Below, piece after piece: positions 8,234 through 20,700 of a stretch of 64,000 nt of DNA. This DNA is from Opitutales bacterium (lineage in GTDB: Bacteria > Verrucomicrobiota > Verrucomicrobiia > Opitutales > JABSRG01): assembly GCA_049599475.1 (NCBI GenBank), contig JBMYOQ010000001.1:96500-160499 (forward strand). Direction: 5' to 3'. The notes under the pieces are model-generated. The model saw nothing but the letters and a program-made list of their open reading frames with translations. It had not been told where the DNA came from and did no database searches. Position 1 is the first letter of the stretch. The number at the start of each line of letters is the position of its first letter. Both the position numbers and the translations under genes were made by a program.

Positions 8234-8332
8234 ATGAATTCTAAAGCAATGCCAACTATGAAACCGATGACCGCGCACAAATGTGTGAACGGTGCGGTGT
8301 GGCATGCGTGGAACATGGCCTGGCGATGGTGA
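8234..8332 (+). CDS. Trp-rich leader peptide (32 aa)
   Basis: MNSKAMPTMKPMTAHKCVNGAVWHAWNMAWRW*; 4 TGG in the last 10 codons; followed by antiterminator/terminator. Confidence 0.65.
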   Translation: MNSKAMPTMKPMTAHKCVNGAVWHAWNMAWRW

Positions 8333-8408
8333 GAGGAATAGAGACTAAAATCAATATCCAAACATCGAATCCAGGCCGCGAATTTACCAGAAAATCGCGG
8401 CCTTTTTT
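8317..8408 (+). terminator. Attenuator: antiterminator overlapping an intrinsic terminator
   Basis: Terminator aggccgcga(8373-8381)/tcgcggcct(8395-8403) plus T run; alternative pairing ggcctgg+cgatg (8317-8328) with catcg..ccaggcc (8363-8377). Confidence 0.7.
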
Positions 8409-8451
8409 GTGTCAAAAAAATCCCAGCAACCCTTTTTACAGAAATAGAGCC

Positions 8452-9165
8452 ATGAATACATTTTTAGAAAAACCCACTCAGATGCACCTCGAAAACATCG
8501 CCTTTTACGGGCGTACTTTCGATGAATATTGTGCAATCTTCAATCTGGATCCAGCGGAGCTTGAGGGGAAGCGTATCCTCGATACCGCATCAGGTTCCGC
8601 GTCCTTCGCCGCTGAATCATTGCATCGCGGTTACGATGTGACGGCGAGCGATCCGCTCTACGACCGAAGTGCTCCGTCGCTCGGACGTATCGGATCTATG
8701 GATATCGAGAGTGTAATAGCGAAAGCGCGCGAGGTGGAGAGTGTCTTTACCTTCAGTTATTATAAGTCGATTGATGAAGTCTACAAAGCGCGCTATAAGG
8801 CGATTCGAGGGTTTTTAGATGATTACCCGTCTGGACGAGCTCTAGGGCGTTATCAATGTGCATCTCTCCCGGACCTGCCCTTTAGCGATAACGCATTCGA
8901 TATTGTATTGAATGGACACTTTTTATTCCTTTATGCCGAGCGGTTAGGAGACGCGTTTGTGTTTAACGCAGTGAGCGAGTTACTGCGCGTTTCCAGCCGA
9001 TCGGTATACCTTTACCCACTGATCCAGCTAAATGGTCAAAAGTATCCACGGCTGGATGAGCTCGTTAAAAAAGTCGAAAACAACGGTGTTACTGCTGAGT
9101 TTAGGTCTTTGGAGTTTGAGTTTTTTAAGGGAGCAGACACGTGCTTGATATTAAACCAACCATGA
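8452..9165 (+). CDS. Class I SAM-dependent methyltransferase
   Basis: ILDTASGSASF motif I, LPFSDNAFDIVL, HFLFLY; start placed at MNTF, after the terminator. Confidence 0.85.
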   Translation: MNTFLEKPTQMHLENIAFYGRTFDEYCAIFNLDPAELEGKRILDTASGSASFAAESLHRGYDVTASDPLYDRSAPSLGRIGSMDIESVIAKAREVESVFTFSYYKSIDEVYKARYKAIRGFLDDYPSGRALGRYQCASLPDLPFSDNAFDIVLNGHFLFLYAERLGDAFVFNAVSELLRVSSRSVYLYPLIQLNGQKYPRLDELVKKVENNGVTAEFRSLEFEFFKGADTCLILNQP

Positions 9166-10580
9166 AACGTATCGTAATCCTCGTTTTCGAAAAAGCTGAG
9201 CTGCTTGATTTTTGCGGCCCATTCGAGATCATATCGACGCTTGAGACCGAGGATCTTGAGCCTGTGGAAGTGGTGCTCTGGAATCCGCTGGAGTCTCGGG
9301 AAATAAAGTCGGCAAACGGTGCCAGCGTGATTGCCGATGAGATCGGTGAGCTCGCTGAAGACTCTATTGACTTGCTTGTTGTTCCGGGAGGAGAGGGCTC
9401 GCGTACTTTTTTGCGCAATAGTCTAGCAATGGGGCGGCTCAGTGTCGCCTTTGGTCTAAGTGAACGCGTGTTGAGTGTCTGCACCGGTGCTCGTATTTTG
9501 GCCGCTGCGGGAGTGCTCAAAGGCTTGTGTGCGACGACTCACTCCAGTGCGCAAGTGGACCTCGCGGAAAATTATCCCGAAGTGATCTGGGATTTTTCAA
9601 AGCGGTTTCACGATAATGGAAAGTGGATTATTTCCGCAGGAGTTGCTTCAGGAATTGATGCTGCCTTGTATTGGTTGGGAAATACATTTGGCGAGAGCCG
9701 TCGGCGAGATGTCGCGCAGGCGGTAGAGGTTCCTCTTGTGGGGAATATGGCGATCTTCGGCGGCTTGGCCTATCAGATTGTCGATGCTTTCTGTACAGAT
9801 AAGTCCTTTTCGGGGAACCCGGCTGCTGTGTGTATCTTAGACGAATCGCTTCCCGATAGCATTTTACAGAAGATCGCTATGCAGCATAATCTCAGCGAGA
9901 CGGCTTATCTGAACTTTCTGGAGATACGTGAAGATTCGCCGGTATATGAACTGCGCTGGTTTACGCCGGAGGTAGAAGTTGATCTGTGCGGTCACGCAAC
10001 ATTGGCATCGGCTTCCGTTGTTTTTGATCTCAACGCGGCTTGGGAGCAGGTGATCTTTGTGACACGCAGTGGAGAGCTCCTTGTGAAAAAAGGTGCGGAG
10101 GGCTTAGAAATGGATTTTCCAAAGCTAAAATACGAGGCGGCAACCGAGGCTGATCTACTTGGAGTGGGTCTGCCAGGCGAAGTCGTAGAGGTCCAAACGG
10201 GTATGGATTTGGCGGTGGTCGTGAACGAAGCTCAAGCTTTGATGGATTGGTCGCCTAATCTCTCGGCGGTCGAAAAGTTGCCGTATCGAGGATTGATCGT
10301 TACAGCCAAGTATTCAGAGAATGGGTACGATTTTGTATCACGGTTTTTTGCTCCACAATCAGGTGTTCCCGAAGATCCGTTTACGGGGTCAGCCCACTGC
10401 TGGCTAGCTCCTTACTGGTGTGATCAGCTTGGCAAGGGAACGGTCACAGGATTACAGGCATCCAAACGTCAGGGCCGCGCAGTCTGTTCTGTGGTAGGTG
10501 ATCGCGTTTTATTGTCAGGTGCGGCTTCCTTATATTCGACCGGTTATATAGCGGTCGAGCGCCTGGTCGAAGACGAGTAG
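9162..10580 (+). CDS. DJ-1/PfpI (InhA-like) plus PhzF-family isomerase fusion
   Basis: N-terminal half ELLDFCGP, VPGG, SVCTGA, ATTH, SAGVASGID; C-terminal half VDAF..GNPAAV, NLSETA, VDLCGHATL, EDPFTGSAH; ATGA overlap with the upstream gene. Confidence 0.88.
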   Translation: MKRIVILVFEKAELLDFCGPFEIISTLETEDLEPVEVVLWNPLESREIKSANGASVIADEIGELAEDSIDLLVVPGGEGSRTFLRNSLAMGRLSVAFGLSERVLSVCTGARILAAAGVLKGLCATTHSSAQVDLAENYPEVIWDFSKRFHDNGKWIISAGVASGIDAALYWLGNTFGESRRRDVAQAVEVPLVGNMAIFGGLAYQIVDAFCTDKSFSGNPAAVCILDESLPDSILQKIAMQHNLSETAYLNFLEIREDSPVYELRWFTPEVEVDLCGHATLASASVVFDLNAAWEQVIFVTRSGELLVKKGAEGLEMDFPKLKYEAATEADLLGVGLPGEVVEVQTGMDLAVVVNEAQALMDWSPNLSAVEKLPYRGLIVTAKYSENGYDFVSRFFAPQSGVPEDPFTGSAHCWLAPYWCDQLGKGTVTGLQASKRQGRAVCSVVGDRVLLSGAASLYSTGYIAVERLVEDE

Positions 10581-12368: not shown

Positions 12369-12926
12369 ATGAAAAAGACTGCCTTAGCCTTCACCCTAGT
12401 CGCCGCCGTTCTTACTGGCGCTCAAATCGCTTCTGCTCAGGAAGCTCCTCAAATCAAGAAAAGCCCCGATGCATCCTTCACACAGACCGTGGGGCTGACC
12501 GAGATCACTGTAAAATATAACCGGCCCAGCGCGCGCGGTCGCGAGATTTTTGGCGGTTTGGTTCCTTACGACAAGGTGTGGCGCACGGGGGCTAACCAAT
12601 CTACAGACATCACCTTCAGTGCACCCGTTATGTTTGGCGGCGAGTATGTCGAAGCAGGCACCTATGGCCTTTACACGATTCCTGGAAAGGACGGATGGAA
12701 GGCGATTCTTTACAGCGATGCAGATCTCTGGGGGACGGGTCGCGACTATGATGCTTCCAAGGAAGTCGTCCGAGTGGATGCTGCAGTTTTTGAGCTTTCG
12801 CCAGCGTTGGAGACCTTTGCAATCGGAGTAAATGCCATCACAGACACCTCTGCGATCCTGCATTTTGACTGGGTAAACACTCGGGCAGGTGTAGAAATTC
12901 GTGTAGGTGAAGCCGTAATGAAGTAG
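12369..12926 (+). CDS. DUF2911 family exported protein
   Basis: Signal peptide; QTVGLTEITVKYNRPSARGREIFGGLVPY..VWRTGAN. Confidence 0.85.
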   Translation: MKKTALAFTLVAAVLTGAQIASAQEAPQIKKSPDASFTQTVGLTEITVKYNRPSARGREIFGGLVPYDKVWRTGANQSTDITFSAPVMFGGEYVEAGTYGLYTIPGKDGWKAILYSDADLWGTGRDYDASKEVVRVDAAVFELSPALETFAIGVNAITDTSAILHFDWVNTRAGVEIRVGEAVMK

Positions 12927-12972
12927 ACTTTCTTTGGAACCCCTGGCAGGTGTCAGGGGTTTCGTCATGTAC

Positions 12973-15432
12973 ATGGCCCGCATTATCTCCGCAATCTTGT
13001 TTGCATCCTCAATGGCTGCTTACGCAAATGTCTCTCCTAAAACGGTAGGAGAGATTCAGCACGGTATTCAGAAATTGGGTACCCTCGCGAGTGTCTTGTA
13101 TGTCGCTGCGCATCCCGACGATGAGAACACGCGGCTCATTGCTTACATGGCGAATGAGGCGAAAGCCGAGACGACATACTTATCTCTCACTCGGGGCGAT
13201 GGCGGCCAGAATTTGTTGGGCGATGATCTGGGGCACAAACTCGGCGTAGCCCGTACTCATGAGCTCTTGGAAGCCAGGAAAATTGATGGGGGTAAGCAAT
13301 TTTTCTCTCGTGCTAATGACTTCGGCTATTCCAAATCTGCAGTCGAATCTATCGAGATCTGGGGTAAGGACCAGGTGATGGCCGATACGGTGTGGGCGAT
13401 CAGAGTGTTGCGCCCAGACATTATTATTAACCGATTTTCTACCGAGCCGGGGTTCACTCATGGGCACCACACTGCTTCGGCTCAGCTCGCCGTTGAAGCC
13501 TTTGAACTAGCTGCAGACCCAGAGCAATTTCCAGAACAGTTGAAGTGGGTCGAGCCGTGGCAGGCGAAGCGCATTGTCTGGAATACGTCCACTTGGTTTT
13601 ACCGGAGGCGCGGGCTCGACTTCGACCCGCGTTCGATGGTCTCTGTCGATACCGGAGTGTATAATCCTACTTTGGGAATGGCTTATTCTGAGATAGCCGC
13701 CCTGAGTCGCAGTGCGCACAAGACCCAGGGTTTCGGCGCAACCCCGCGCTTGGGCGAATCCAAAGAATATTTTGAGCACATTCGTGGACCCCAAGCGGAA
13801 AGTGATCTCTTTGACGGGGTTGATACGTCTTGGACCCGACTCGAGGGCGGTGAAGGTGTTGGAAAAATGGTGGCTAAGCTTCAGTCATCTTTCGACTCCA
13901 CGCGACCGGAGGCCAGTGTAGGAGAGTTGTTGAGCATTTATAGGGCGATTGGTGAACTCCCTGATGGATTTTGGAAGGAAAAGAAAATGGCTGAGGTGCG
14001 GGACTTAATCTTCGCGTGCATAGGTCTGGATGTCGAATGGCTGAGTTCCGAGAAAGAAGGTACGCCTGGCAGTCAAGTGCGAGGCGAGGTCTTGGCTGTC
14101 CAGCGGTCCTCATTTGACGTCAAGATTCAGGGGTCTTCTACAGGTGATGCGAAATCGATGCGTAAGAATGTGCTCGTCAAACTTCCGCTTCCAGTGACTG
14201 TTTCAGAGGACGCTCCTGTTTCTCAGCCTTACTGGCTGCGCAAGCCCGGGACCCTCGGGGCCTATGTCGTGGACGATCAAGAATGGATCGGAATGCCTGA
14301 AGGCCTGTCGCCCCTGGCAACTCCAGTCACGGTGACGGTAGCCGGTGAAGCCCTTACCATTATTCTGGAGCCTGAATTTAAATACAATGATCCGGTAGAC
14401 GGGGAAGTGAAGGAGCGTTTTCAAATCACTCCTCCGGCGACGTTGAATTTGGATGAGCGCTTGCACATCGTGAGCTCCCCTGAACCCATCAGTGTCGGCG
14501 CCACTCTGCAGGTACGTGAGGATACTGCTCAAGGTGCTTTAGAGTTTAAGGCGAATGATGGTTGGACTGTGTCGCCGGAACGCGTGGAGTTTGAAGGGAA
14601 GCAAGGCGAAGAGATTCGTATTGAAACCGAGTGGGTCCCCTCGGGTGAACCGGGTCAAAGTAGTTTGCTCGGTAGTGTCCTTCTGGATGGAGAGACGATT
14701 GATGTCGGCTATGAGCGCATGGAATATGACCATATTCCGGTCCAGACATTCTTCCCCAAAGCAGAAGCGAAGGGTATCCTTCTCGATGTCGAAAAGCGTG
14801 GGGAGCGTATTGGGTATATTGAAGGGGCTGGCGATGCCGTGCCTCAGGCTTTGGAGCGAATAGGGTATCAAGTAGATATGCTCACCGAAGCGGATCTCAG
14901 CTCTGATGTCTTGGAGCAGTATGATGCGGTTGTTCTCGGTATTCGTGCACTCAATACAATTGATCGTATCGGGTTTATGATGCCAACCTTGTTTGATTAC
15001 GCGAAAGCTGGAGGGGTGTTGATACTTCAGTATAACACAGGGCACCGCTTGAAGACTACGGACTACTCGCCCTTCAGATTGAACATCTCGCGTGATCGCG
15101 TAACGGATGAATTTGCGGCCGTGGAGATCTTGGAGCCTGAACACCGGGTGTTAAATTACCCAAATAAAATAGGCGCCGCTGATTTTGAAAACTGGGTGCA
15201 AGAGCGTGGGCTGTATTTCCCGAATGCATGGGGTAAAGAATTTACTCCAATTTTTTCTATTGCGGATCCTGATGAATCGCCGAGTGAGGGTAGCCTTCTA
15301 ATAGCCAAATATGGCAAGGGATTTTATGTCTACAGTGGACTATCATGGTTTCGTCAGTTGCCGGCTGGCGTGCCCGGAGCGTATCGTATCTTTGCAAATA
15401 TCGTATCTTTAGGTAAGGCAGTAAATGAGTGA
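12973..15432 (+). CDS. Secreted multidomain PIG-L/LmbE deacetylase
   Basis: Signal peptide, AAHPDDE, TRGDGGQN, DFGYSK, HGHH; long C-terminal region that looks Ig-like then GATase-like. Confidence 0.88.
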   Translation: MARIISAILFASSMAAYANVSPKTVGEIQHGIQKLGTLASVLYVAAHPDDENTRLIAYMANEAKAETTYLSLTRGDGGQNLLGDDLGHKLGVARTHELLEARKIDGGKQFFSRANDFGYSKSAVESIEIWGKDQVMADTVWAIRVLRPDIIINRFSTEPGFTHGHHTASAQLAVEAFELAADPEQFPEQLKWVEPWQAKRIVWNTSTWFYRRRGLDFDPRSMVSVDTGVYNPTLGMAYSEIAALSRSAHKTQGFGATPRLGESKEYFEHIRGPQAESDLFDGVDTSWTRLEGGEGVGKMVAKLQSSFDSTRPEASVGELLSIYRAIGELPDGFWKEKKMAEVRDLIFACIGLDVEWLSSEKEGTPGSQVRGEVLAVQRSSFDVKIQGSSTGDAKSMRKNVLVKLPLPVTVSEDAPVSQPYWLRKPGTLGAYVVDDQEWIGMPEGLSPLATPVTVTVAGEALTIILEPEFKYNDPVDGEVKERFQITPPATLNLDERLHIVSSPEPISVGATLQVREDTAQGALEFKANDGWTVSPERVEFEGKQGEEIRIETEWVPSGEPGQSSLLGSVLLDGETIDVGYERMEYDHIPVQTFFPKAEAKGILLDVEKRGERIGYIEGAGDAVPQALERIGYQVDMLTEADLSSDVLEQYDAVVLGIRALNTIDRIGFMMPTLFDYAKAGGVLILQYNTGHRLKTTDYSPFRLNISRDRVTDEFAAVEILEPEHRVLNYPNKIGAADFENWVQERGLYFPNAWGKEFTPIFSIADPDESPSEGSLLIAKYGKGFYVYSGLSWFRQLPAGVPGAYRIFANIVSLGKAVNE

Positions 15433-15535
15433 TTCCAAAAATCCAATTCCATGGGGAATGATTTATAGCGCGGTGCTGGCATGGCTCGTCGTTGTGATTG
15501 TGCTCATGTATGTGTTCTCGAAGGTGTTTTCATGA
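15425..15535 (+). CDS. 36-aa single-pass membrane protein, probable symporter partner
   Basis: MSDSKNPIPWGMIYSAVLAWLVVVIVLMYVFSKVFS*; overlaps the upstream stop and shares an ATGA junction with the symporter. Confidence 0.75.
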   Translation: MSDSKNPIPWGMIYSAVLAWLVVVIVLMYVFSKVFS

Positions 15536-17217
15536 GTGTCGTGGATTGGATTGTCCTCGTGGGGACTGTGTTGGGGATTGTCTTATACGGCGTCTGGGTC
15601 GGACAGCGTAATCGGAATTTAAATACTTATTTGCGCGGTGGTGACGGGCTGAAGTGGGGGACGATTGGCCTCTCGGTGATGGCCACACAGGCCTCCGCCA
15701 TCACCTTTTTATCTACACCAGGACAAGGCTATGAGAATGGACTGGCCTTTGTGCAAAATTATCTGGGGCTGCCCATTGCTCTGGTGATTATTTGTCTCTT
15801 TTTTATCCCGCTCTATTATAAGCTGAATGTTTCCACGGCCTACGAGCTGTTAGGGCAGCGGTTCGACCAGAAAACACGGCTTCTTGGGGCAGGTTTGTTT
15901 CTCGTGCAACGAGGGTTTGCCGCAGGGATCACCATTTATGCGCCAGCCATTATTGTTTCCACGCTCTTTGGCTGGGGGCTAAATATGACCATCGTAATCA
16001 CGGGTGTGCTGGTGATTTTATACACGGTCTCAGGAGGGACGCGTACAGTAAGTCTCACTCAGAAATACCAGATGCTCGTGATACTGATAGGGATGACGAT
16101 TGCCTTTGGGTATGTTATCGCAGGTTTGCCACAAAACATTTCTCTAGGAGATGCCCTCTACTTAGCAGGCGTCCAAGGCCGACTCGAAGCAGTCAGTTTT
16201 TCCTTTGATCCGGAAGAGCGTTATACGATTTGGACGGGTCTTCTCGGTGGAACCTTTTTGGCGCTTTCTTACTTCGGTACGGATCAATCGCAGGTTCAGC
16301 GATACTTGGCGGGCGGTTCGTCTGTGGCAAGCCGCCTGGGGCTGATGTTCAATGCTGTATTGAAGATTCCGATGCAGTTCGCCATTTTGCTCTTGGGTGC
16401 TCTTCTGTTCGTATTCTATCAGTTTGCGGGCTCACCGGTGTTTTTCAACGAAACTGCTCTCGATGGTATTCCTGAAGAGCGTTTGGTGGAAATTCAGAAT
16501 GAGTATGATGCAAACCAGGAAACTCGGATACCTCTCTTGCACGATGTGCTGGAAGAGCGAAAGACCTTGGGTGAGCCTACTGACGAAACCTTGGGATATC
16601 TCGCGAGTGTCAATGACAAGTTGGATTCGAGCCGCGAGGAAATACGCGAGGAGATAAAACAGGTAGATGCTAAGGCGGACACGGAAGATGCTGATTATGT
16701 CTTTCTTACATTCGTGCTTAACAATCTTCCTGTGGGGCTGGTCGGCTTGCTCGTGGCAGTGATTTTCCTTGCTGCGATGTCCTCGACGGCGTCTGAGCTA
16801 AATGCTTTGGCTTCTACAACAATGGTCGACGGCTATCGTGCTCTAATCCGAAAGAACGAGAGTGAGACGCACTACGTGTGGGTGGCGCGGGCTTTGACGC
16901 TTTTCTGGGGGGTGTTGGCTGTGGGGTTTGCCATGACTTTGACGCTCTTCGACAATCTCATTGAAGCAGTGAACATCATCGGTTCATTGTTTTACGGAGC
17001 GATCCTGGGGCTCTTTTTGATCGCATTCTTCATACGCTGGGTTGGCGGAAGTGCCGCATTCTGGGGTGGCGTTCTTGCAGAATGTATCGTGCTCGGGCTG
17101 TATTTCTCTGAGGTGGATATCGGCTACCTATGGTTTAATATGATTGGCTGCGGGATTACAGTTGTCCTAGCCATGGGTTTTCAGACCTTATTTTTCAAAA
17201 GTCCTCAGGAGGCCTAA
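15532..17217 (+). CDS. Sodium:solute symporter (SSS) family transporter
   Basis: ATQASAITF, TDQSQVQRYL, AAMSSTASELNA; many TM segments; start at MSVVDW. Confidence 0.92.
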   Translation: MSVVDWIVLVGTVLGIVLYGVWVGQRNRNLNTYLRGGDGLKWGTIGLSVMATQASAITFLSTPGQGYENGLAFVQNYLGLPIALVIICLFFIPLYYKLNVSTAYELLGQRFDQKTRLLGAGLFLVQRGFAAGITIYAPAIIVSTLFGWGLNMTIVITGVLVILYTVSGGTRTVSLTQKYQMLVILIGMTIAFGYVIAGLPQNISLGDALYLAGVQGRLEAVSFSFDPEERYTIWTGLLGGTFLALSYFGTDQSQVQRYLAGGSSVASRLGLMFNAVLKIPMQFAILLLGALLFVFYQFAGSPVFFNETALDGIPEERLVEIQNEYDANQETRIPLLHDVLEERKTLGEPTDETLGYLASVNDKLDSSREEIREEIKQVDAKADTEDADYVFLTFVLNNLPVGLVGLLVAVIFLAAMSSTASELNALASTTMVDGYRALIRKNESETHYVWVARALTLFWGVLAVGFAMTLTLFDNLIEAVNIIGSLFYGAILGLFLIAFFIRWVGGSAAFWGGVLAECIVLGLYFSEVDIGYLWFNMIGCGITVVLAMGFQTLFFKSPQEA

Positions 17218-17220
17218 GGA

Positions 17221-17994
17221 ATGTCAGAACCGGTAATATGTTTTGGTCAGCAACCCTGTGGATTTTTTCCCCGGCGCTTCTTGTGGTCCAAGATTTTGAC
17301 TGCCCGGCGTCTTCAATCGGAAATTGGTGGGCGCATTGTATTTTTCTACCATGACAGCGATCACGATCCGCGAGAGACTCAGACATTTGTCTGTAATAAG
17401 GATTCAGGCGCTGAACAGTGTCTCAATTTTACCTTCAAGAATAAGATCCAGAAAAAATATACGCCACTCTATGCTAAGGAACTCGTGGATGGATGGCAGC
17501 GTGATATGGCGCGACAGATGCCCAAGTTTGCCTCGGATACATGCATACAGTGGTTCCGAGATATTGACGCTACCAACATAGCGGATTTTTGCTTAGAGAT
17601 GTATGAATCGATGGGTATCTTGGACGGGGTGGACGTGGTGAGGTCGAGCGATCCGGAATTCCGTGAATCGGCCTGCACTGTGGATGATTACTTCGTCGAT
17701 ACCGAGTATGAAGGCGAGTGGGTGCGTGCGCGTCTCGCGGAGGCTGGGGCACTGCAGTTGCACCGCGGCGGTGGAAAATTTATCGAACTGAGTGGGCGCT
17801 CGTGGACTGCCGAACATATCAGTCCCACTCGGGATACGCGTCTTTTATGGATGCAGTCGGTGATCCAGTGCACCCATTACATCGCGGGAGCTGGCGAGCT
17901 CCAGTATTTGAATATGGACGAAGCGCCTGAAATAGAGTTTGTTACCCGTGATCCCATTGAAAATGCCTCGGCGGCATACATCCCCGAATCATGA
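17221..17994 (+). CDS. Compact BshC-like protein (bacillithiol cysteine-adding enzyme family)
   Basis: GQQ..F, K, VFFYHDSDHD and YIAGAGELQY resemble BshC GQQ, FWxxxEDHD and YxGGPGExxY; adjacent to bshB1-bshA. Confidence 0.65.
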   Translation: MSEPVICFGQQPCGFFPRRFLWSKILTARRLQSEIGGRIVFFYHDSDHDPRETQTFVCNKDSGAEQCLNFTFKNKIQKKYTPLYAKELVDGWQRDMARQMPKFASDTCIQWFRDIDATNIADFCLEMYESMGILDGVDVVRSSDPEFRESACTVDDYFVDTEYEGEWVRARLAEAGALQLHRGGGKFIELSGRSWTAEHISPTRDTRLLWMQSVIQCTHYIAGAGELQYLNMDEAPEIEFVTRDPIENASAAYIPES

Positions 17995-18707
17995 GTGAGC
18001 CCAAGACCATCCTTGCTGTTGGCGCGCACCCGGACGACTTAGAGTTTGGCTGCGGTGGCATCCTGTTGAAGTCGGTTGGGGGCGGAGCACGCGTGCATTG
18101 CGTCGTCACTTCGCTTGGAGAGTCTGGCTCCGCTGGGACTCCGGAGCTTCGGAAGGTCGAAGCCCAGGAGGCCGCTCAGATGCTTGGACATGCGTCGGGC
18201 CCGCAGTTTTTGGACTTTGGCGGAGACGGCATGCAAATAGCCAGTAAAGAGAATGTGCTAAAAATCGCGCGTATCATTCGGGAGGTGAAACCGACCCATG
18301 TGTTGGCGCCGACAGTCGTGAAAAATCAACATCCCGACCATGTCGTAGTGGGTGAGGCTGTGCGAGAAGCCTGCCGCCTGGCGCGCTACGGTGGATTGGC
18401 AGTCTTGAAAGATCTCCCAGTTCACCGTGTCGAAGTGTTGGGGTATTACACCATTACTTCATCTGAAGAGCGCCCATCTGGCACGCGGATGTGTATTGAT
18501 GTCAGCGAAGTTTTTGATGACTGGCAGAAACTGATGGCCTGCCATCAAACGCAGGTGTCTGCTCGGGGGTATATTGAATTGATCAATGCGCGGGCTCGCC
18601 AATTGGGCATGGCTGCGGGAGCAGAGTATGCGCAGGAGATTTATCTCAACGATCCTCCGCTAGTAGAAGGTTTCGAAACAATCGAGCGTACTTTGCGTTC
18701 GTTTTAG
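17991..18707 (+). CDS. bshB1: Bacillithiol biosynthesis deacetylase BshB1-like (PIG-L family)
   Basis: GAHPDDLEFGCGG, GESGSAGT...R, HPDH; directly upstream of bshA. Confidence 0.8.
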   Translation: MSEPKTILAVGAHPDDLEFGCGGILLKSVGGGARVHCVVTSLGESGSAGTPELRKVEAQEAAQMLGHASGPQFLDFGGDGMQIASKENVLKIARIIREVKPTHVLAPTVVKNQHPDHVVVGEAVREACRLARYGGLAVLKDLPVHRVEVLGYYTITSSEERPSGTRMCIDVSEVFDDWQKLMACHQTQVSARGYIELINARARQLGMAAGAEYAQEIYLNDPPLVEGFETIERTLRSF

Positions 18708-18710
18708 AGT

Positions 18711-19850
18711 ATGGGTCGGAGCTTGAAAATTGGGGTCGTCTGCTATCCGAGTATCGGAGGTAGTGGTATATTGGCTACGCATCTCGGGTTGCTTTGTGCC
18801 AAGGAAGGGCACGAGGTACATTTTATCTCCTACGAGAAACCGGTGAGGCTCGATGTCGATCACCCCAATATTCATTTTCACTTGGTATCTGTTTCTGAGT
18901 ATTCACTTTTTAAATACTCCGACTACACATTGCCCTTATCTGTTAAAATAGCGGATATCTCTGAAGAGCATGATCTAGATGTTTTACACGTGCACTATGC
19001 GGTTCCCCATGCGACAGCAGCTCTGCTAGCGCGCCAAATGCGCCCGCATACACAACGTCCAGCTATTGTCACGACCTTGCATGGCACGGACACGACTCTC
19101 TTGGGTAAGGATCCGCACTATATGCCCATCATTAAATTTTCGATGGAGCAATCGGATGGGGTGACTACTGTTTCTCAAAGCCTCAAGCAGCAGACTATCG
19201 ATACTTTTGATGTGAAGCATCCGATTGAGGTAATTTATAATTTCTATGATCCAGCGCCTCCCGTTCGGTCTCGAGAAGAGGTGCGTGCTGATTTGGGAGT
19301 TGCTGAGTCAGAATTGATGCTCTTGCACATGTCGAACCTTCGGCCGGTGAAGCGTTTCGAGGATATTCTGCAAGCGTTTGCTTTGGTCGATAGTAGCTTG
19401 AATTCTAAGCTGGTTGTAGCTGCAGGCGCTGACTCGCGATCGTTCAAAGCCGAAGCCGAGAGGTTGGGCGTTGGAGATCGGGTGATTTTTCGAGAGCATG
19501 TTGTAGCGATCAACGATTATCTGAATGCATGTGATATTGGAGTATATGCTTCTGAGCAGGAAAGCTTTGGATTAAGCATTTTGGAGACGATGTGCTATGG
19601 CCATCCGGTAGTCGCGACGCGAGCCGGGGGCATCCCCGAGGTTGTCGAAGATGGGGCGAGTGGGATTTTGGTCGAAATAGGCGATGTAAATGCTCTGTCG
19701 GCTGCAATGACTCGATTGATCCAAGATGCGGAGCTCAGAGCGTGCTATGGTGAACGCGGTGCGGCCGTGGCGGCATCCAAGTTTTCAGGAGCTCCGGTGA
19801 GGGATCAGTATTTAAAACTCTATTACGAAATGGTGGCGGCTTGTGAATAG
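18711..19850 (+). CDS. bshA: N-acetyl-alpha-D-glucosaminyl L-malate synthase BshA
   Basis: KIGVVCYPSIGGSGILAT, LHVHYAVPHA, TTLHGTD, SNLRPVKR, ESFGLS. Confidence 0.93.
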   Translation: MGRSLKIGVVCYPSIGGSGILATHLGLLCAKEGHEVHFISYEKPVRLDVDHPNIHFHLVSVSEYSLFKYSDYTLPLSVKIADISEEHDLDVLHVHYAVPHATAALLARQMRPHTQRPAIVTTLHGTDTTLLGKDPHYMPIIKFSMEQSDGVTTVSQSLKQQTIDTFDVKHPIEVIYNFYDPAPPVRSREEVRADLGVAESELMLLHMSNLRPVKRFEDILQAFALVDSSLNSKLVVAAGADSRSFKAEAERLGVGDRVIFREHVVAINDYLNACDIGVYASEQESFGLSILETMCYGHPVVATRAGGIPEVVEDGASGILVEIGDVNALSAAMTRLIQDAELRACYGERGAAVAASKFSGAPVRDQYLKLYYEMVAACE

Positions 19851-20700
19851 GAATCGGCTTTGGTTGTGCATTTTTTGTTGTTTGGTGGCCTGTTTAGGCG
19901 CTTTTGCTGATGCTGGGGATCAAGCATCTGAGAGCGAGGCTGCCTTGGAAAATGCTTACGACACTTTTAGAAAAGCGTCTTTAGCACGGAGAGTGTATCC
20001 TGTGCGGGCCTTAGCAAGGGCTGCTAGAGAAGCAGGGGATGCCGAGGCCTTGGAACAATATACGGAGCTCGAAGTTTCAGAGTATGCGCAACATCGGGCG
20101 GAGCTTACGGATTTTGCATTGTCAGTGCTGAAGGATACAACTGCCTTGGCTGTGAGCGCGAGTCGTTGGAGTGATTATCGATTGGATGATCTGGCGGCAG
20201 CTGTTCAGGCATTCCAGGCGAAGTTTCCTGAACATGAAGATCTGCCCGTACTACTGGATAAAATTGAGAGCTTGAAACGTGTTCGGGTAGGGGCGACTGC
20301 CCCGGCAATCACGGGCAATTCCCCGAGCGGGGAAACTTTGAGCTTGGCCGAATTTAAAGGGAAATACGTTTTGCTCGATTTTTGGGCCGGATGGTGCCCG
20401 CCATGTCGCGTAGAAAACGCCAACTATGTTGAGCTGTATTCAGAATATGGAGGCGATGAGTTTGAGATTTTAGCGATTTCACAGGACCGCCGTCCAGACC
20501 AGTGGAAGCGTGCAATTGCTCAGGATAAGGCGACATGGAAGCACATTTCCGATGTGAAAGGGATGGATAGTTCTCAGGCGAAGGCCTATGCGGTGACCGC
20601 TCTTCCTGCGAGTTTCCTGATCGATCCAGACGGGATAATCATCGCCAAAGATTTGCGTGGCGATGCTTTGGCCGAAAAATTGGCCGAAGTCCTTAAGTGA
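19843..20700 (+). CDS. Exported TlpA/ResA-like thiol-disulfide oxidoreductase
   Basis: Signal peptide, LLDFWAGWCPPCR, ALPASFLID. Confidence 0.88.
   Translation: MNRNRLWLCIFCCLVACLGAFADAGDQASESEAALENAYDTFRKASLARRVYPVRALARAAREAGDAEALEQYTELEVSEYAQHRAELTDFALSVLKDTTALAVSASRWSDYRLDDLAAAVQAFQAKFPEHEDLPVLLDKIESLKRVRVGATAPAITGNSPSGETLSLAEFKGKYVLLDFWAGWCPPCRVENANYVELYSEYGGDEFEILAISQDRRPDQWKRAIAQDKATWKHISDVKGMDSSQAKAYAVTALPASFLIDPDGIIIAKDLRGDALAEKLAEVLK

Follow-up and report, generated by a model that had tools for sequence, protein, structure and literature searches.

The window analysed here is a stretch of 64,000 nucleotides of contig JBMYOQ010000001.1 from an Opitutales bacterium (assembly GCA_049599475.1). 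At positions 12369..20700 it contains eight genes that appear to encode a bacillithiol pathway of a variant type, in which BshC has an unrecognised half-size form, together with, plausibly, an arm for recovery outside the cytoplasm; the system itself is real and conserved. An open reading frame (ORF) check of the window finds the eight genes tightly packed on the forward strand, as follows (lengths in amino acids, aa).

12369..12926, plus strand: DUF2911 protein, 185 aa, with a signal-peptide-like N-terminus (PF11138, 169.9 bits).
12967..15432, plus strand: large PIG-L/LmbE-type zinc amidohydrolase, 821 aa, likely exported (PF02585).
15425..15535, plus strand: peptide of 36 aa with a single membrane span, overlapping the start of the symporter gene (an ORF with small hydrophobic counterparts in relatives).
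15532..17217, plus strand: sodium:solute symporter (SSS), 561 aa (TIGR00813, 221.9 against a cut-off of 184).
17221..17994, plus strand: mini-BshC (ORF5), a half-size BshC homologue and predicted cysteine ligase, 257 aa (fold and motifs).
17991..18707, plus strand: BshB1-like cytoplasmic deacetylase, 238 aa (TIGR04001, 137.9; best solved relative 6P2T).
18711..19850, plus strand: BshA, N-acetylglucosaminyl-malate (GlcNAc-malate) synthase, 379 aa (TIGR03999, 416.1 against a cut-off of 273.7).
19843..20700, plus strand: TlpA/ResA-like CxxC thioredoxin with a signal-peptide-like start (thioredoxin fold).

With ATG 12967 as the start of the large PIG-L gene and ATG 15532 as that of the SSS gene, the junctions measure, in gene order, +40, -8, -4, +3, -4, +3 and -8 bp, so that the co-oriented genes, overlapping or a few base pairs apart, described in the first-pass annotation of this DNA are confirmed. 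On one side of the eight genes, 146 bp away, lies a divergent ilvA gene, and on the other, 7 bp away, a convergent HDOD gene; a promoter and terminator scan of the operon returned fewer sites than in shuffled sequence and is uninformative. The closest relatives carry the names Verrucomicrobiota and Opitutales, and the source genome is 96.6% complete. The labels given in the first-pass annotation to DUF2911, the two PIG-L proteins, the SSS, BshA and the thioredoxin hold. In the hidden Markov model searches that it proposed, BshA scores over its cut-off and BshB1 and BshC score under theirs: the label BshB1 agrees with the match to 6P2T and not with TIGR04001, and the label BshC-like agrees with the fold and not with the family model.

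Comparison of BshA with solved structures identifies 3MBO, 2JJM and 5D00 (each with an E-value of about 1e-93), and the window protein shares with the solved BshA proteins the motifs GGSG, HYAxPH, TLHGTD, SNxRxxKR and ESF, the residues of which are invariant in 69 neighbouring BshA sequences. By score and motifs, the window protein is a member of the BshA family, with malate as the presumed acceptor. For the BshB1-like protein, the closest solved relative is 6P2T, a BshB1 (E-value 2.1e-21), and the LmbE zinc motifs are retained; its TIGR04001 score lies below the cut-off of 182.5, and its relatives score 124-134 bits on the same model. A PIG-L protein encoded at L188:8344-9054 (genome G096), in an apparent sugar catabolic cluster, is 26% identical to the window BshB1. 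TIGR04001 scores near 135 fail to identify BshB1, because this protein scores 133 bits in a genome without bshA.

The product of ORF5 reaches no family cut-off. It matches PF10079 with an E-value of 0.011 and 15.6 bits, under the cut-off of 27, and no NCBIfam model; its sequence retrieves nothing in searches against solved structures, and hhalign against a single BshC gives a probability of 0.5%. Homologues are numerous (6828 among 7699 candidates) and uniform in size, with full-length frames of 254-269 aa in 83 loci; they are labelled hypothetical at most among the 120 listed. Similarity of its Atlas features to BshC clusters (0.91-0.92) provides a lead, and an AlphaFold model (single chain, 56 sequences) reaches a pLDDT of 95.6 and a pTM of 0.92. 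The top Foldseek match of this model is BshC of Bacillus subtilis, 4WBD (E-value 5.7e-11), and in the VIA comparison with 4WBD 241 of the 257 residues align over the range 82-512 of the 540-residue chain, with a Z-score of 20.2, a root-mean-square deviation of 2.7 Å and 16% sequence identity. The runner-up fold, class I lysyl-tRNA synthetase, has a Z-score of 14.6, well under that of 4WBD. When mini-BshC is aligned with a profile of 7 canonical BshC sequences (drawn from 14 loci, the extraction having missed the other 7), hhalign gives a probability of 89% and an E-value of 2.4e-7. Both the profile and the 4WBD alignments place the BshC motifs GQQ, DHD, P..R..MQ and YIAG.GE..Y in mini-BshC; the invariance of GQQ and R..MQ across 80 loci is partly circular, the scan patterns having contained these motifs.

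About 300 residues of BshC are missing from mini-BshC, among them some 80 at the N-terminus and the coiled coil, the latter judged absent because the longest helix of the model has only 17 residues. A split BshC with a distinct gene for the missing C-terminal half is rejected, since no such gene was found in the source genome. A 17-sequence alignment reveals family-specific cysteines, C124 being invariant and C7 and C217 nearly so; these residues may bind metal or substrate. Mini-BshC and BshC (4WBD, TIGR03998, PF10079) have in common the Rossmann core; they differ in that BshC is a protein of ~530 aa with a coiled coil and mini-BshC has 257 aa and no long helix. Thus, the term BshC-like holds for fold and motifs and not in the sense of an ordinary BshC: judging by the modelled fold, rather than by family score or architecture, mini-BshC is a separate half-size family that corresponds to the Rossmann catalytic core of BshC. 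Were ORF5 a non-catalytic or decayed remnant, the cassette would only make or handle glucosaminyl-malate (GlcN-malate) or its N-acetylated form, and the loss of more than half of the BshC chain, and with it of the coiled coil that is described as needed for dimerisation (PMC4360819), is what such decay would entail. The thousands of homologues of uniform length, the strong conservation of the motif positions and the confident single-chain model speak against decay, and this explanation can nearly be set aside.

The distribution of mini-BshC is complementary to that of canonical BshC. Among 201 genomes of the phylum of the window, bshA scores over the cut-off in 11; ten of these encode mini-BshC, and the only PF10079 match is in the eleventh (G105), which encodes a BshC of 521 aa in the order bshC-bshB-bshA, the same gene slot being kept in the mini-BshC cassette. 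Among 151 genomes of the phylum of G234 (Phycisphaerae), bshA is present in 78, PF10079 in 83 and mini-BshC in 1. The sole bshA genome without PF10079 is the sole mini-BshC genome, and the other 77 have PF10079, which is also found without a bshA match in 6 of the 151. In the phylum of G235 (Obscuribacterales), mini-BshC is present in 1 of 101 genomes; PF10079 is absent from five further mini-BshC genomes examined, and neither canonical BshC nor GshB was found in the source genome. In its distribution, mini-BshC thus takes the place of canonical BshC, the two being mutually exclusive across bshA genomes.

These data bear on a different product, in which mini-BshC would add another amino acid or an acyl group to yield a new GlcN-malate conjugate instead of bacillithiol. 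Low identity to BshC, the lost residues and the family-specific cysteines would all be compatible with a changed specificity, as would the finding that no YpdA scores over the cut-off in the source genome. Given that the core BshC motifs are kept, that the exclusion of canonical BshC is exact and that the BshA motifs are the same as in bacillithiol producers, a product of this kind is unlikely. Thiol synthesis with mini-BshC is, in our estimate, likely.

Two observations on canonical bshC genes emerged from the same samples. About half of the 151 genomes of the G234 phylum (77) carry bshA with canonical bshC, although PMC6282198 counts Planctomycetes among the groups with no predicted thiol. 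In G105, an S-adenosylmethionine-dependent methyltransferase is encoded directly upstream of bshC-bshB-bshA (L082:738-1496); it is possibly NmbA of the N-methyl-bacillithiol pathway, and as a query against the source genome it yields weak partial matches with 25-26% identity.

The neighbourhood of mini-BshC is well conserved. In the best 80 of at least 578 loci, ranked by likeness to ORF5, and counting for each gene only the loci with enough flanking sequence, SSS is found in 65 of 70, the large PIG-L in 55 of 62, DUF2911 in 52 of 58, BshA in 65 of 68 and BshB1 in 53 of 68. Pelagicoccus sp. SDUM812005 and Thalassobacterium maritimum are cultured carriers named among these loci. Seven of the eight genes thus form a conserved cassette, with a gene order that is not due to chance. 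Clustering of the neighbours across the 80 loci gave no additional gene in more than 10 loci. All five mini-BshC genomes checked contain bshA, including three without bshA in the fetched locus. The exception within the operon is TlpA, which carries a CxxC motif near residue 185 and reaches no equivalog cut-off: among the 80 loci, only one, from a genome of the same genus, contains a close match. The periplasmic thioredoxin, proposed in the first-pass annotation as part of the system, is therefore rejected as a member and is a local addition, incidental to the cassette. In five freshwater Opitutae loci (L017, L022, L029, L032:7425-7913 and L044), the DUF2911/PIG-L/SSS trio is replaced upstream of mini-BshC by a gene for a GNAT acetyltransferase, which may provide an N-acetylating step like that of MshD or be there fortuitously. 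A GNAT 55% identical to it is encoded in the source genome away from the cassette.

The large PIG-L finds its best NCBIfam match in Mca (TIGR03446, 48.7 against a cut-off of 277.15), with TIGR04000 at 19.7 against 195.25. Its zinc motif, H49-P-D-D52 with H165/H168, is invariant in 130 of 130 alignments, and a hydrophobic N-terminal stretch is present, by a simple heuristic, in 136 of 146 homologues; some homologues also contain a NEW3 domain (PF10633). These features predict an exported enzyme that cleaves N-acyl-glucosaminyl-malate. The SSS meets TIGR00813 and no substrate-specific model; from its position, it is predicted to import GlcN-malate. Small membrane partners of SSS transporters are known, ActP/YjcH being an example. 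Here too a short hydrophobic ORF lies at the SSS start (just upstream of SSS in 94 of 117 loci); the 36-aa peptide of the window differs in having no Pfam match and is likely a small subunit of the symporter. For DUF2911, searches of the Protein Data Bank and the Atlas retrieved only its own family and no solved relative; it is a likely candidate for a periplasmic accessory of the hydrolase or importer. In many loci (L026, L055, L060, L068, L207-L219), a tandem pair of DUF2911 paralogues precedes the large PIG-L gene.

The linkage of the trio with bshA beyond this locus, on which the first-pass annotation had staked its proposal, is supported by several samples. In the 201 genomes of the phylum, the large PIG-L is present in exactly the 10 mini-BshC genomes, in one of them together with DUF2911 at a distance of 2.5 Mb from the mini-BshC locus; all five genomes without the trio at the locus keep the large PIG-L elsewhere. 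A further sample of 201 genomes at the level of the class (the second Verrucomicrobiae sample), searched with the large PIG-L, gave 26 matches, 23 strong and 3 weak. The strong ones comprise 6 genomes already seen, G236 and 16 newly fetched genomes, in 14 of which mini-BshC lies beside the trio and in the other 2 of which bshA is located elsewhere. The 3 weak matches, with a PIG-L+CBM9 architecture and in genomes without bshA, were set apart. G236 is titled 'Dongiaceae' yet groups with the class of the window and has contigs in common with G131 and others; the title is probably misleading. In the G234 phylum, the large PIG-L is found in 23 of the 151 genomes, each of which also matches bshA (in one case through a partial gene cut off by the contig end), the bshA background being 78 of 151 (52%); the hypergeometric value of 4e-8 overstates the significance, the genomes being related. 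Conversely, 55 of these 78 bshA genomes, and G105, have no large PIG-L. Co-occurrence thus holds in one direction: the PIG-L is found almost only with bshA (10 of 10 and 23 of 23), and many bshA genomes do without it.

Metagenomic contigs give a looser picture. In 80 loci picked by the large PIG-L, the best of at least 596, SSS adjoins PIG-L in 56, DUF2911 lies beside it in 31 and bshA is nearby in 6; in the remaining 74 there is no bshA near PIG-L, many of these contigs being short. Of the six with bshA, four contain mini-BshC and two (L161 and L165, 99% identical and so one organism) contain canonical bshC with bshA over the cut-off, divergent from PIG-L-SSS and with DUF2911 flanking, that is, with a different gene order. 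Close homologues of the large PIG-L are named in Rufibacter, Pontibacter, Adhaeribacter and Reichenbachiella, and for Pontibacter actiniarum the supplement of PMC12719100 lists the bacillithiol pathway. The trio is thus genetically tied to bshA but optional, and it is unnecessary for synthesis.

An optional trio could be a general amino-sugar scavenger that deacetylates GlcNAc sugars and imports glucosamine, its link to the bsh genes reflecting inheritance or precursor supply and bacillithiol being made all the same. The trio is common without bsh neighbours, bshA genomes often have no trio, and the NEW3 domain of some PIG-L homologues would suit such a function. The confinement of strong PIG-L homologues to genomes with bshA or mini-BshC and the independent linkage to canonical bshC-bshA in L161/L165 are harder to accommodate, and a general scavenger is on the whole rather unlikely.

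The bshB1 gene is missing from 12 of 65 bshA-bearing loci. No BshB1-like PIG-L was found in any of five metagenome-assembled genomes without bshB1 at the locus, for which completeness is not given and non-PIG-L deacetylase families were not searched; in three of the five, the large exported PIG-L is the sole PF02585 match. Loss of bshB1 fits an envelope arm that supplies GlcN-malate. The same genomes, together with the L161 locus, in which bshC-bshA and the trio are found without bshB1, also suit a scheme in which the exported PIG-L serves synthesis itself: GlcNAc-malate would leave the cytoplasm, lose its acetyl group in the periplasm and be taken up again, and the cytoplasmic BshB1 would be dispensable. 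The cassette includes no exporter and bshB1 is kept in most loci, so that periplasmic synthesis seems improbable, and salvage would be the main role of the envelope arm.

A clue to the substrate comes from distant homologues of the large PIG-L, 27-30% identical where aligned full-length. In all 22 plasmid records with such a homologue, a paralogue of argininosuccinate lyase (best NCBIfam match PRK06705, annotated argH) is encoded 2.8-4.8 kb away. These loci, e.g., L084:1757-13214, L083:1122-12505 and L248:1174-13632, belong to alphaproteobacterial and Bacillus plasmids. The seven that were opened all contain genes for an ATP-binding cassette (ABC) importer and a ROK protein, with NagB in one (Loktanella), a GlcNAc-kinase-like gene in one (Bacillus F19) and an EamA exporter in two; one locus has a gene annotated as cysteine dioxygenase, which a family scan did not confirm. 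The PIG-L start has no signal-like stretch in the six alphaproteobacterial copies and has one in the Bacillus copy. Distant homologues also adjoin a fused two-domain ABC permease, not SSS (L235:5784-7445, L239:6849-8564, L083:3425-5149). A lyase of the fumarase superfamily beside genes of glucosamine catabolism would suggest a glucosamine to which a malyl or succinyl group is attached. GlcN-malate would be such a compound, with PIG-L first removing the N-acyl group, and the locus is a candidate for the route by which GlcN-malate or bacillithiol is broken down. The substrate may also be an N-linked succinyl sugar. For plain GlcNAc sugars a lyase would be needless, which is a further point against a general scavenger. 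Among 33 lyase records, 11 have no PIG-L. Six of these were opened: five contain sugar ABC permeases, one adding ROK, NagB and GH9 and another ROK and an SIS protein, and the archaeal record shares nothing with the rest. A literature search for PIG-L/LmbE proteins with argininosuccinate lyase, ROK or glucosamine found nothing, subscription journals being mostly uncovered.

Taken together, sequence, fold and gene linkage lead us to propose, with moderate confidence, that the operon makes bacillithiol or a close variant and recovers its GlcN-malate core from the periplasm, the product and the activities being predictions. BshA would couple UDP-GlcNAc with malate, the BshB1-like deacetylase would strip the acetyl group and mini-BshC, the bare catalytic core without the coiled coil, would add cysteine. 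The bacillithiol-like thiol of the first-pass annotation is upheld to this extent by the BshA score, the BshB1 relative, the BshC fold and the complementary distribution. The large PIG-L would then cut the N-acyl bond of periplasmic thiol conjugates, of the disulfide or of GlcNAc-malate, a step suggested because of the zinc motif, the Mca-type best match, the co-occurrence and the lyase loci, and the SSS with its small peptide would, from their position, re-import GlcN-malate for reuse. That the exported hydrolase takes an acyl-GlcN-malate substrate and that its product is imported is fairly probable.

Several observations weigh against this proposal. The BshB1-like protein and mini-BshC score below their family cut-offs, the latter with low identity to its structural match, and no YpdA scores over its cut-off in the source genome. 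Many bshA genomes do without the large PIG-L, most metagenomic PIG-L loci have no bshA nearby, and the significance of the co-occurrence is inflated by relatedness. The lyase clue rests on distant relatives, 9 of the 22 records being from Aminobacter, and a third of the lyase records have no PIG-L. Moreover, argininosuccinate lyases normally break C-N and not C-O bonds.

The logic of the envelope arm resembles that of glutathione recycling, where periplasmic gamma-glutamyl transpeptidase is combined with uptake: in both, an exported thiol would be cut outside the cytoplasm and its parts re-imported. Enzyme and thiol are unrelated, and the likeness is an analogy only. Among the described pathways, the closest is BshA-BshB1-BshC of B. 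subtilis, Bacteroidota, Chlorobi and Waddlia (PMC5790435, PMC6282198), which has in common with the cassette BshA, the BshB1-like protein, the BshC fold and motifs and a gene order like that of G105; the differences are that here a 257-aa family missed by standard models takes the place of BshC and that the genes are joined to those of an exported hydrolase and a symporter. With the Mca and Bca/BshB2 amidases (PMC5790435, PMC4360819), the large PIG-L shares the PIG-L/LmbE zinc motif and a proposed release of the GlcN aglycone for recycling. It differs in its size of ~820 aa, multi-domain architecture, signal-peptide-like start, pairing with an importer and a score far under the Mca cut-off.

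Bacillithiol is not mainly a thiol of Firmicutes, as the first-pass annotation had it: that statement understates its range, 2111 Bacteroidota species carrying the pathway (PMC12719100). Hiras et al. (PMC6282198) place Verrucomicrobia and Planctomycetes among the lineages for which no thiol is documented or predicted. The 2025 survey (PMC12719100) demanded similar length and more than 80% coverage, and would therefore miss the mini-BshC family; its supplement, as consulted, holds no Verrucomicrobia or Opitut- names. According to two reviews (PMC5790435, PMC4360819), in vitro reconstitution of the BshC reaction had not been achieved. No published description of the cassette or of a short BshC was found in the partly accessible literature, which leaves subscription journals mostly uncovered. 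The cassette thus predicts a protective thiol in Verrucomicrobia, where none had been predicted. A natural half-size BshC would show which parts are dispensable and, being simpler, would lend itself more readily to assays or crystallisation, and testable substrates are offered for DUF2911, the large PIG-L, this SSS clade and the lyase paralogue annotated argH.

A wider scheme is tentative. Mini-BshC might be a working cysteine ligase in Opitutales, Chthoniobacterales and scattered lineages; the exported PIG-L with the symporter might be the first case of extracytoplasmic bacillithiol recycling, able to replace BshB; and the lyase-paired cytoplasmic homologues might let bacteria consume bacillithiol or GlcN-malate as fumarate and glucosamine. 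If so, bacillithiol would be a traded environmental nutrient.

Outside the operon, the window contains at 9141-10580 a frame of 479 aa in which a DJ-1/PfpI domain is fused to a PhzF-like domain, preceded by a weak methyltransferase-like ORF at 8281-9165.

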